Shown piece after piece: positions 1,099 to 29,960 of a stretch of DNA of 64,000 nucleotides. A model generated the notes under the pieces. That model saw nothing but the letters and a program-made list of their open reading frames with translations, ran no database searches and was not told the origin of the DNA. Origin of the DNA: a virus (taxonomy: Duplodnaviria; Caudoviricetes). The translations under genes and the position numbers were made by a program. Position 1 is the first letter of the stretch. The number at the start of each line of letters is the position of its first letter. The stretch is from the IMG/VR virus record IMGVR_UViG_3300035698_001480, positions 535-64,534 of that record. One strand, 5' to 3'.

Positions 1099-1150
1099 TA
1101 CACACATGATAGCTTAAAATTAAGACCTTAAGTTATTGTGTGTGTATTTT
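1099..1150 (+). terminator. long hairpin followed by T-run, possible intrinsic terminator or processing stem
   Basis: TACACACATGATAGCTTAA / TTAAGTTATTGTGTGTGTA pair over 19 bp with G-U pairs, then TTTT. Confidence 0.55.
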
Positions 1151-1154
1151 ATAT

Positions 1155-1236
1155 ACCTTCAATGGTTACTAGCTATAAAATATAGCATCGTAAGATCCTA
1201 ATAAGGGTAGTCATGGTTCAATTCCATGTGAGGGTA
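1155..1236 (+). ncRNA. tRNA-like RNA: acceptor stem and T-arm intact, no canonical D or anticodon arm
   Basis: Acceptor ACCTTCA/TGAGGGT plus discriminator A; T-arm CATGG-TTCAATT-CCATG; interior folds as ACTA/TAGT closing three small hairpins. Confidence 0.55.
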
Positions 1237-1259
1237 CTAGTTTTCATAATTTTTAGTTT

Positions 1260-1292
1260 ACCCTCATTGCTTAATAGCGTGAGGGTTTTTAT
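1260..1292 (+). terminator. rho-independent terminator
   Basis: ACCCTCATTGC-TTAATA-GCGTGAGGGT followed by TTTT. Confidence 0.75.
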
Positions 1293-1355
1293 TACACTAT
1301 ACAATAATATTAACTACAGTTACAATTTAGTTTGAAATTTCTATTGTAACAAGAC

Positions 1356-1533: not shown

Positions 1534-1605
1534 GGACACTTAGTAATAATGAATAAAACATCTTCTTTTTTGAAGAAAATACAGGTTCGAGTCCTGTAGT
1601 GTTCA
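1534..1605 (+). tRNA. atypical or pseudo tRNA-Lys(UUU)-like gene
   Basis: Acceptor GGACACT/AGTGTTC; perfect T-arm ACAGG-TTCGAGT-CCTGT; anticodon arm TCTTC-TTTTTT-GAAGA (loop not 7 nt); D-arm degenerate; no encoded CCA. Confidence 0.6.
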
Positions 1606-1634
1606 CAAATATTAATCATTTAAAAATAAAAATT

Positions 1635-1881
1635 ATGGAAAAAAATAAGACAAGCTGCTGAAGAATTTACCAAAAGGCACTTCCCTTCAATACGGCAAAT
1701 ACCTATACAATCATTTAAAGCCGGAGCAAATTCAAAAGAAGCTAAGGAATTACATACTAAAGATATGTATACAAAAGAAGAAGTACTTAGTATATTAGAA
1801 TTTGTAAATGATAGACTGTCTGACCTATATTCTAGGTTTGATAGTGAGCACGAATTAAAAGAATATAAAAGAAGTAAATAA
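1635..1881 (+). pseudogene. small phage hypothetical protein frameshifted in an A7 run
   Basis: ATG GAA AAA AAT... stops after 8 codons; removing one A gives 81 aa MEKIRQAAEEFTKR...SFKAGA...MYTKEEV...KRSK*. Confidence 0.55.
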
Positions 1882-12948: not shown

Positions 12949-12974
12949 AAGCCTAGCTAAGTCTAGGCTTTTTA
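12949..12974 (+). terminator. rho-independent terminator
   Basis: AAGCCTAG-CTAAGT-CTAGGCTT-TTT. Confidence 0.7.
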
Positions 12975-19894: not shown

Positions 19895-19990
19895 TTGTAA
19901 CTATGAATTAACTTTATATAGTTGTAAGGATTTTTTCATGTTTTAGTTTTAAGTGTTTAGGGGGAGCTGTTATGGTTCCTCCCTTTTTTT
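19895..19990 (+). ncRNA. candidate small RNA (hairpin + U-rich anti-start-codon segment + terminator)
   Basis: TTGTAACTAT/ATAGTTGTAA stem, then GGATTTTTTCATGTTTTAGTTTTAAGTGTTT, then terminator. Confidence 0.4.
19959..19990 (+). terminator. rho-independent terminator
   Basis: AGGGGGAGCTG-TTA-TGGTTCCTCCCT followed by T-run. Confidence 0.75.
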
Positions 19991-28917: not shown

Positions 28918-28952
28918 TAATTAGCCCTTAATTGGGCTTTTAAACTGAAATT

Positions 28953-29960
28953 ATGAAATTTAAACCATATCACAAAATAAGACAATATAAAGATATTGTA
29001 AGAGATATTTCAATGACTTCTAATTATAAAGGTAAAGATGAAAATGATGAACCTATATATGAAGAATCTAAAAAACCAATTTTAACATTCACAGGAACTG
29101 TTAAACTACATGGTATTAATGCAGGGGTTTGTTATAATAATATAGAGGGAGTATTTGCGCAGAAAAGAAGTTCTTTATTAGGAACAGGTAAATTAGATTC
29201 TCACATGGGATTTAATAGTTTTGTACAAGGACGTAACAAAGATTATTTTAATAATCTAATGCACGATTTGTATACTAAACATTGTACGCAAGACGAACAA
29301 ATTACTTTGTATGGAGAGTGGGCAGGTAAAGGTATTCAAAAAGGTGTAGCTATATCTGAATTAGATAAGTCTTTTTATATCTTTGATTGTAAAATATATA
29401 ACTTAGAAACAGAAGAATATAGATGGGTAGATATTACTATTCCACCAGAATCGAATGTCTATTATATTAGTGACTTCCAAACATTTGAAATAGAAATAGA
29501 CTTTAATAATCCTAGAGCAATTCAAAATAAGTTAATTGAACTTACTACAGAAGTAGAAAGAGAATGTCCTGTATCTAAACAATTAGGTATTTCTGGGGTA
29601 GGTGAAGGTATAGTATGGAAAACTGAATGGCGGGGAGAAAGATATATCTTTAAAGTTAAAGGTGAGAAACATTCTTCATCTAAAGTTAAAAATCTAGCTG
29701 CTGTAAATCCAGAATTACTTAAAACTAGAAATGACTTTGTAGAATACGCTTGTACAGAGAATAGAATTAAGCAAGGTATTCAAGAAACAAATGCTACAGA
29801 AAAGCAACATATACCTGATTTACTACGTTGGGTAGCTAATGATATTATTACAGAAGAGGATGATACTATGGTTGCTAATGAGCTAGAATGGAAAGATGTA
29901 GCTAAAGATATTTCATTTAGAGTTAGAACTTATTTCTTTAGTATAATTAATAAAATATAA
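28953..29960 (+). CDS. rnl2: RNA ligase, Rnl2 family
   Basis: TVKLHGIN (motif I), QKR, YGEWAG.GIQK, FYIFD, GEGIV, FKVK. Confidence 0.92.
   Translation: MKFKPYHKIRQYKDIVRDISMTSNYKGKDENDEPIYEESKKPILTFTGTVKLHGINAGVCYNNIEGVFAQKRSSLLGTGKLDSHMGFNSFVQGRNKDYFNNLMHDLYTKHCTQDEQITLYGEWAGKGIQKGVAISELDKSFYIFDCKIYNLETEEYRWVDITIPPESNVYYISDFQTFEIEIDFNNPRAIQNKLIELTTEVERECPVSKQLGISGVGEGIVWKTEWRGERYIFKVKGEKHSSSKVKNLAAVNPELLKTRNDFVEYACTENRIKQGIQETNATEKQHIPDLLRWVANDIITEEDDTMVANELEWKDVAKDISFRVRTYFFSIINKI

Follow-up and report, generated by a model that had tools for sequence, protein, structure and literature searches.

A predicted non-decoding tRNA-like element with a U-rich tail and a terminator in a distant crAss-like phage from salt lakes

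The DNA analyzed here, referred to as the window, comprises 64,000 nucleotides (nt; bases 535-64534) of the 64.5-kb linear IMG/VR virus contig IMGVR_UViG_3300035698_001480, for which CheckV gives a completeness of 68%. Positions 1155-1292 of its + strand carry a tRNA-like element, a U-rich tail and an intrinsic terminator in direct succession (Table 1). In our estimation the chances are about even that this is a gene for a non-decoding tRNA-like RNA, which would be competent for processing and have its own terminator, the tail being a by-product, namely the 3' spacer of the unit. The first-pass annotation had taken the same segment for a tRNA mimic fused to an antisense small RNA that blocks translation start sites.

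Table 1. Coordinates of the tRNA-like element, its tail and related features of the window (ORF, open reading frame).
Feature	Position	Strand	Sequence or structure	Remarks
Imperfect inverted repeat	1099..1146	+	19-nt arms, 84% complementary, then TTTTATAT	8 nt upstream of the tRNA-like element
Non-decoding tRNA-like element (folding model)	1155..1236	+		Fold, acceptor/T-arm scan, Rfam, ARAGORN
Parts between acceptor stem and T-arm	1166-1193; 1195-1208		AUGG linker; interrupted hairpin (1166-1193) with AAA triloop; 5-bp hairpin (1195-1208) with AAUA tetraloop	
U-rich 3' trailer (seed 1)	1237..1260	+	CTAGTTTTCATAATTTTTAGTTTA	CAT 1245-1247 is the complement of a start codon
Intrinsic terminator	1260..1292	+	8-bp stem ACCCTCAT/GTGAGGGT, 11-nt loop, TTTT-A-TT	Hairpin 1260-1286
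Micro-ORF	1218..1247	-	MKTSTLTWN, 9 codons	Start-site-like sequence before ATG 1247-1245; inside TTG-started ORF 1218..1304
tRNA(Lys-like) gene	1534..1605	+		Rfam tRNA 40.5 bits; missed by ARAGORN default
Start region of first downstream ORF	1623..1641	+	ATG 1635	17/19 complementary to 1241-1259; best match of the tail in the window
Second copy	19933..19990	+	TTTTCATGTTTTAGTTT, CAT 19937-19939, 10-nt spacer, terminator hairpin 19960-19982, T tract	No tRNA-like part

The tRNA-like element and its terminator

The element begins and ends with a complete tRNA acceptor stem (ACCTTCA at 1155-1161, TGAGGGT at 1229-1235), in which seven of seven pairs are formed and the sole wobble is U4-G69 (U1158-G1232). 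The stem is followed by the discriminator A1236; CCA is not encoded, as CTA comes next. The T-arm CATGG-TTCAATT-CCATG (1212-1228) is canonical, with a 5-bp stem ending in G53-C61 and a 7-nt UUCRANY loop. Exact matches to GGTTCRANTCC occur in the 64 kb at 1215 and 1584 only, and a loose search for a T-arm together with an acceptor stem yielded two window hits with 7/7 acceptor pairs compared to a mean of 0.32 in 100 shuffled sequences. The minimum free energy (MFE) fold of the element reaches -21.6 kcal/mol (z -2.4).

In the MFE fold of 1155-1236 both the D-arm and a 7-nt anticodon loop are absent. With default settings ARAGORN reported zero tRNA genes in the whole window, and the Rfam tRNA model (RF00005) scored 17.2 bits (E 2.4; threshold 29), covering 1195-1236 only. 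ARAGORN at 90% thresholds draws a cloverleaf at 1155-1237 with a 3-bp D stem, an anticodon stem mismatched by C-C, an 8-nt loop and the anticodon GUAA. The energy of this cloverleaf is -6.3 kcal/mol, i.e. less favorable by 15 kcal/mol than that of the stable fold. We therefore consider the element to be non-decoding; it is not a normal tRNA. It resembles ordinary phage tRNA genes (RF00005) in its acceptor stem, T-arm, discriminator and lack of an encoded CCA, as well as in its location in a tRNA region upstream of replication genes, as in relatives of the phage, but differs from them by a stable fold without D-arm and 7-nt anticodon loop and by scores below the Rfam and ARAGORN thresholds.

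The terminator directly behind the tail has five G-C pairs in its 8-bp stem and a T tract immediately after the hairpin. The trailer 1237-1292 folds with -15.2 kcal/mol (z -4.2), a value equalled by 0 of 200 shuffles. Acceptor stem and terminator are formed together in the MFE as well as in the centroid fold, and the stretch between them (about 23-24 nt) is predicted to be fully unpaired. The anatomy given in the first-pass annotation is therewith borne out: the 24-mer at 1237-1260 reads CTAGTTTTCATAATTTTTAGTTTA, the tRNA-like element lies directly upstream and the terminator directly downstream of it, and on the minus strand its ATG opens nine codons followed by a stop.

On this basis, 1155-1292 would be a small + strand non-coding transcription unit in a phage tRNA region. 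The tRNA-shaped RNA would retain the parts read by tRNA-processing enzymes, i.e. the 7-bp acceptor stem, the canonical T-arm and the discriminator A; D-arm and 7-nt anticodon loop would have been lost, or were never present, so that the RNA could not decode. Transcription would halt at the strong intrinsic terminator and, by analogy with tRNA genes encoding no CCA, RNase P would trim the 5' end. Since no CCA is encoded, an RNase Z-type cut after A1236 would free the body and a tail of ~56 nt, consisting of 23 unpaired U-rich bases and the terminator hairpin. We infer not only transcription and processing but also the absence of a tail function: the tail would be a 3' external spacer without a dedicated job, and its antisense likeness to start sites would be incidental or a relic. 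A function is not needed because the two copies of the tail sequence are not significantly similar and the best target lies within chance, as detailed below. Against a mere spacer it has to be said that a compact phage genome would not be expected to keep a useless pseudo-tRNA. If this plain interpretation is true, the unit is one more degenerate phage tRNA-type gene, and its main use is the warning that tRNA finders miss such elements.

The tail as a mirror image of translation start sites

A functional tail is possible but in our judgement doubtful. The unpaired, U-rich and CAU-centred stretch would act as an 'anti-start' tail, in copy 1 once it has been freed from the tRNA-like body and in copy 2 (at 19.9 kb) while forming the 3' end of an mRNA. 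It would pair with A-rich start regions lacking a Shine-Dalgarno (SD) sequence, e.g., at 28953 (RNA ligase gene), at gene 7707 and at ORF 1635, and hinder 30S binding. Several statistics argue for this and weigh against a tail that is only a by-product. The 56 gene starts of the window, called as the first ATG of non-overlapping ORFs, show no SD motif; they have an A-rich leader, often (T)AAATTATG, and continue with A-rich codons. In a position weight matrix (PWM) of these start sites the minus-strand ATGs 19939 and 1247 rank 41st and 48th of 2120 ATGs and are first and second of the 600 on the non-coding strand. Likewise, the CATs at 19937 and 1245 are first and second among 58 CATs in 4.2 kb of non-coding DNA. 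Both are situated directly 5' of a terminator on the transcribed strand, where seed 1 is predicted to be entirely single-stranded.

Duplex predictions with the 56 start regions gave means of -7.8 kcal/mol for seed 1 and -9.7 kcal/mol for seed 2, the corresponding segment of copy 2 (-8.7 kcal/mol when trimmed to 24 nt). Shuffled seeds reached means of -6.3 and -7.7 kcal/mol, respectively, and the observed means were attained by 0 of 200 shuffles. As a second control, 300 natural T-rich 24-mers were sampled from 1165 of like composition, with the antisense of gene starts left out; the mean pairing was matched by 2/300 for seed 1 and 0/300 for seed 2, and none of 89 CAT-containing ones reached seed 1. 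PWM ranks, duplex means and T-rich controls together demonstrate that the likeness of the tail to SD-less A-rich starts is real and goes beyond composition and T-richness, as had been claimed. Since the sites had been chosen for their appearance, the rank statistics are partly post hoc, which counts against a functional tail.

A specific target is less well supported. The top predicted targets common to both seeds are 28953, 7707 and 1635. Nevertheless, the best single target of seed 1 (28953, -15.2 kcal/mol) was reached by 10.5% of shuffled seeds and that of seed 2 (7707, -17.9 kcal/mol) by 4.5%, so that the best targets are no better than those of shuffled seeds, and the duplexes, being all A/U, are weak. 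An unbiased alignment scan with the 24-mer had the complement of the start region at 1635 as its top hit with a score of 14, a score attained by 28% of shuffled queries; the complementarity of 17/19 to the start of the next gene remains a point in favor of a function. The look-alike at the RNA ligase start was found as described, with TAAACTGAAATTATGAAA at 28941-28958 preceding an ORF with a Pfam RNA_ligase domain (E 4e-12).

The second copy, located in the 3' untranslated region (UTR) behind a DUF4494 gene and before the DNA ligase gene, had been described as having the same layout. Its motif TTTTCAT-N-TTTTAGTTT (19933-19949) and a terminator 10 nt further on are indeed present, but a tRNA-like part was detected at 19.9 kb neither by Rfam, ARAGORN and the T-arm/acceptor scan nor by model R1 (see below); a tRNA-mimic fusion common to both copies thus does not exist. 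In addition, the predicted fold has the CAU segment of copy 2 base-paired in cis to an AUGAA that precedes it (~19903-19907), which is unfavorable for an exposed tail. The motif has two hits in the window compared to 0.02 expected, a statistic that is post hoc. Because the unbiased local-alignment scan with the 24-mer does not list copy 2 among its eight best hits, the two copies are, at the sequence level, not significantly alike and not demonstrably related, another argument against a shared function. The motif is absent from the window terminators at 12949, 13636, 26437 and 28924, and the '5722 terminator' is situated inside a small ORF; the words TTTTAGTTT and AAACTAAAA are not enriched. 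A promoter reading of the motif was rejected, as the Bacteroidota promoter consensus TTTG-N17-21-TANNTTTG occurs once in the window (12284) and at neither copy. A scan of the window for sigma-70 promoters remained at background (112 found, 114.8 expected). The idea that copy 1 is an inverted copy of the RNA ligase upstream unit was also dropped, the MAFFT alignment being uninformative.

Conservation was evaluated in relatives of the phage, which are all distant. The window carries + strand genes from ~1.6 to 30 kb, among them PolA, helicase, DNA ligase, MazG, primase-polymerase and RNA ligase, and minus-strand genes from 30 to 64 kb, including those for proteins of 5290, 1903 and 1841 amino acids (aa). 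PolA is 28% identical to PolA of Bacteroides phage crAss001, and the closest PolA among 5.8 billion proteins has 58% identity; the phage is therefore a distant crAss-like phage with no close relative at hand. A blastn search with positions 900-1700 against 50,697 phage records gave no match, an exact 22-mer of the tRNA-like element was absent from IMG/VR, and PolA as a single query found no IMG/VR relative. Relatives were recovered by an alignment-based scan only, and 80 PolA loci and 80 ligase loci (160 in total) were used for comparison. Among the + strand terminator-like sites of the window and the 80 PolA loci (n = 133), a mirror score above 5 was found for the two of the window only and for 0/131 in relatives. 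When terminators on both strands of the 160 loci were considered, 4 of 276 scored at least 5, and three of these four were real gene starts on the opposite strand. One of the 80 ligase-upstream regions (L245) shows a T-run and CATGG before a terminator. The conserved CAT-centred cassette with terminator that the first-pass annotation had suggested looking for in related phages, i.e. an orthologous cassette, was found in none of the 80 PolA and 80 ligase loci. This speaks against a functional tail, yet, as the relatives are distant, the missing conservation is weak evidence. A literature search retrieved no tRNA-like or anti-start tails for crAss-like phages, which is no proof of absence as subscription journals were not covered.

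Phage DNA was detected in seven sequencing runs, six labelled salt lake metagenome and one marine; an RNA run was sought among these seven, all of which are DNA. A strain variant with two differences is represented by a single contig from a second salt-lake run, which covers 1126-1327 at a depth of 2.8. G1232A converts the acceptor wobble U1158-G1232 into U-A, leaving the stem intact, and breaks a possible alternative pair with C1263 of the terminator arm. A1249G lies in seed 1, where RNA pairing would persist as G-U. RNA pairing would be kept under both substitutions, a point in favor of a functional tail, and neither conflicts with a + strand RNA that is structured or pairs. Little weight, however, can be given to two changes seen in a single contig of low depth.

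Overall, the anatomy of body, unpaired stretch and terminator fits a start-blocking small RNA, whereas best targets at chance level and the lack of the cassette in the relatives' loci do not. We consider it rather unlikely that the phage uses such tails more generally, i.e. that at least two transcripts of the early region, the tRNA-shaped RNA and an mRNA, end in an exposed U-rich CAU-centred tail which dampens the phage's own SD-less starts, a trait possibly shared with other Bacteroidota phages. The tail of the tRNA-shaped RNA would be severed by tRNA-processing enzymes of the host, that of the mRNA would act while attached. Anti-start tails would amount to phage-encoded translation control in bacteria that do not use SD pairing. 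A functional tail at 1237-1260 would provide a testable case of antisense start-site control in a phylum relying on unstructured A-rich leaders instead of SD sequences, and would link tRNA processing to the release of a regulator.

The mirror-image property might also be explained by minus-strand translation starts, real or recently decayed, which would belong to micro-ORFs (9 and 12 codons) or be left over from genes that were lost or inverted. With start-site scores of 5.8 and 6.1 they surpass 76% and 84% of the real genes of the phage, respectively; hairpin, A-rich leader and ATG follow each other in the layout usual for the coding strand (e.g., 28924-28955), and most look-alike hits in relatives are real gene starts on the opposite strand. 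This explanation is nonetheless improbable, as the genes from 1.6 to 30 kb are all on the + strand, the two ORFs are very short and unrelated to one another, both hairpins have their T tract on the + side, and no minus-strand promoter was identified. Furthermore, a Leu of the micro-ORF is replaced by Phe in the strain variant.

The terminator stem nearly repeats the acceptor stem: TGAGGGT is present at 1229-1235 and 1280-1286, and ACCTTCA at 1155-1161 corresponds to ACCCTCA at 1260-1266. It looks as if the terminator is a collapsed second copy of the tRNA-like element, or as if both stems can swap partners. A cis-acting switch could be built on this, in which the acceptor 3' strand (1229-1235) pairs either with the acceptor 5' strand or, as a perfect 7-mer, with the terminator 5' arm (1260-1266), the three possible pairings being mutually exclusive; whether transcription ends at the terminator or continues into the tRNA and replication genes further on would then depend on formation of the tRNA-like fold. 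We regard such a switch as very improbable. Acceptor stem and terminator coexist in both predicted folds, and the acceptor 5' strand is transcribed first and should therefore win the pairing. Moreover, G1232A improves the acceptor at the expense of the alternative pair, and a ligand or factor is not evident.

Hardly credible, finally, is a decoding role, in which the element would promote four-base reading through an anticodon loop enlarged to 8 nt (GUAA or GUA), paired with the neighboring tRNA of 6- or 8-nt loop: relaxed ARAGORN draws both (1155-1237 and, with a 6-nt loop, 1534-1606) and a single A puts the first downstream ORF out of frame here but not in another assembly, yet the cloverleaf with its 3-bp D stem and C-C mismatch is far less stable than the MFE fold and the Rfam tRNA score is only 17 bits.

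Comparison with tmRNAs and other tRNA-linked RNAs

Membership of 1155-1236 in the transfer-messenger RNA (tmRNA) family was considered and is not supported. Position 3:70 of the element is C1157-G1233 and not the G3-U70 pair of alanine identity. The Rfam tmRNA model (RF00023) listed no match at E up to 10, where a weaker overlap within the same clan may be hidden. Model R1, built from 28 phage elements consisting of the tRNA-like domain (TLD) only, scored the element with 26.6 bits, no better than ordinary tRNAs (26.0 bits for the tRNA at 1534 and 25.2 bits for a tRNA-Arg in locus L009).

A pattern taken from the element (ATGGTW, T-loop, ACTA after the acceptor) retrieved at least 117 IMG/VR loci (L082-L198), and ARAGORN called tRNAs in 19 of the 117 listed. 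Many of the ARAGORN-negative loci are RNAs of ~80-100 nt that are matched by the Rfam tmRNA model from one end to the other, the central 300 nt of the model being deleted. Of the 20 loci scanned, six scored 50.5 to 79.5 bits and seven more 34 to 42 bits. G3-U70 is present in 28 distinct sequences with a GGG acceptor start among the pattern-search matches listed. RNAs of this type are tmRNAs without coding sequence (CDS), i.e. 'TLD-only' tmRNAs. Examples, each the tRNA-like domain of a tmRNA alone, are L126:392-471, L137:393-475, L083:392-471 and L147:392-493. They carry AUGGUU(U)CGAC or AUGGUUAGA, one closed helix, a T-arm, and ACTA in place of ACCA, and are often located 10-40 nt upstream of a gene start. 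In a relative whose PolA is 42% identical, ARAGORN calls a full-length tmRNA (tag GKVIPLHAPVQQVRLAA*) at L034:2475-2820, with PolA following ~3.2 kb downstream.

In two reports, a CDS-less tmRNA is described for one phage, mycobacteriophage DS6A, and suggested to inhibit the host tmRNA via titration of SmpB (PMC4131195; PMC11915505). It resembles the element in being a phage RNA of ~80 nt with acceptor stem and T-arm but no anticodon arm, and in having AUGG(U) next to the acceptor stem, at the place of the D-loop analogue of tmRNA. The element differs from the DS6A RNA by C-G instead of G-U at 3:70 and by the lack of a UUCGAC or GGAC element. By this survey, CDS-less tmRNA-like RNAs are common in uncultured phage contigs; the two reports know them from a single phage.

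With respect to the tail, three systems invite comparison. 3'ETS-leuZ, the 3' external transcribed spacer of the E. coli glyW-cysT-leuZ tRNA operon that Lalaouna and coworkers reportedly described in 2015, is said to be, as would be the case here, a short RNA between the 3' end of a tRNA-type gene and an intrinsic terminator, which is freed by tRNA 3' processing and base-pairs with RNAs. Its tRNA, however, is said to decode and its spacer to sponge Hfq-dependent small RNAs, whereas the body of the phage RNA is predicted not to decode and the proposed targets are mRNA starts. To our knowledge, the likely host phylum is without Hfq. The TMERs of murine gammaherpesvirus 68 are tRNA-linked small RNAs from eukaryotic Pol III/tRNase Z units; they share with the element a tRNA-like body as processing handle for an attached regulatory RNA, but are eukaryotic and yield microRNAs. 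In S. aureus icaR an anti-start element of the 3' UTR pairs with the ribosome-binding region, a likeness limited by the fact that the pairing takes place within one mRNA and involves the SD region. Neither TMERs nor icaR stem from a phage or an SD-less system.

The tRNA region and its counterparts in relatives

Rfam searches of the first 1200 nt of the window gave nothing credible. The inverted repeat upstream of the element may be a hairpin or a weak terminator. Downstream, folding of the 240-nt spacer 1293-1533 does not exceed chance (z -1.7). Behind it comes the tRNA gene, which, located 300 nt downstream of the tRNA-like element and recognized by its Rfam score, places the latter in a small tRNA region. 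ARAGORN in its default mode misses both tRNA-type genes of the window and, when relaxed, gives tRNA-?(tt) for the second one. Its anticodon stem UCUUC/GAAGA encloses six U, so that the loop has 6 nt or, if the stem is counted as 4 bp only, 8 nt, and the six T were the same in two other salt-lake assemblies.

The first downstream ORF (1635-1881, + strand) contains an A run at 1639-1645. With A7, as in this assembly, it stops after eight codons; one contig of another run has A6 and hence an open frame of ~81 codons, whose stop codon is 1879-1881. With A7, this frame could be read only by a +1 shift or four-base reading of AAAA, beside a Lys-type tRNA with an abnormal anticodon loop, a proximity that could be coincidence or assembly error. 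A DUF805b RNA motif (Rfam RF02914; 1885-1919, + strand) with 37.2 bits (threshold 35.6) lies 33 nt upstream of the gene for a 167-aa protein (1952-2455). Pfam and PHROG gave no match for this protein. Its last residues, EDSPF, resemble the tip of bacterial SSB tails.

In relatives, tRNA genes, mostly tRNA-Arg(TCT), are located 1.5-4 kb upstream of PolA on the same strand, and tRNA-like elements to which ARAGORN is blind are also found upstream of PolA on the same strand (1-4 kb). Such tRNA-like elements are therefore a recurrent feature of this phage group. One family of 92 nt (L044:1206-1298, L047:1671-1762, L069:3588-3679) combines a D-arm with two additional short-loop hairpins, one of which shows a compensatory change from T-A to C-G, and with a conserved CATGG loop. 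It sits ~35 nt upstream of a 617-aa gene that we presume, by motif, to be a candidate class II ribonucleotide reductase.

Other relatives contain minimal tRNA-like 'minihelices' (L056:3701-3746, L061:4659-4725, L075:4308-4410, L074:3516-3600), in which the acceptor AAAGCAT/ATGCTTT and ATGGTA are combined with a T-arm and an insert that varies from 5 to 60 nt; G3-U70 is absent from them. The SSB-like gene beside the tRNA-like elements of relatives has no sequence match to the 167-aa protein of the window except for the acidic ED(S/I)PF end. Upstream of this SSB-like gene, the minihelices are followed by a small GNRA-type hairpin and then by the start of the gene, which encodes 172-231 aa and ends in an acidic ED-IPF tail.

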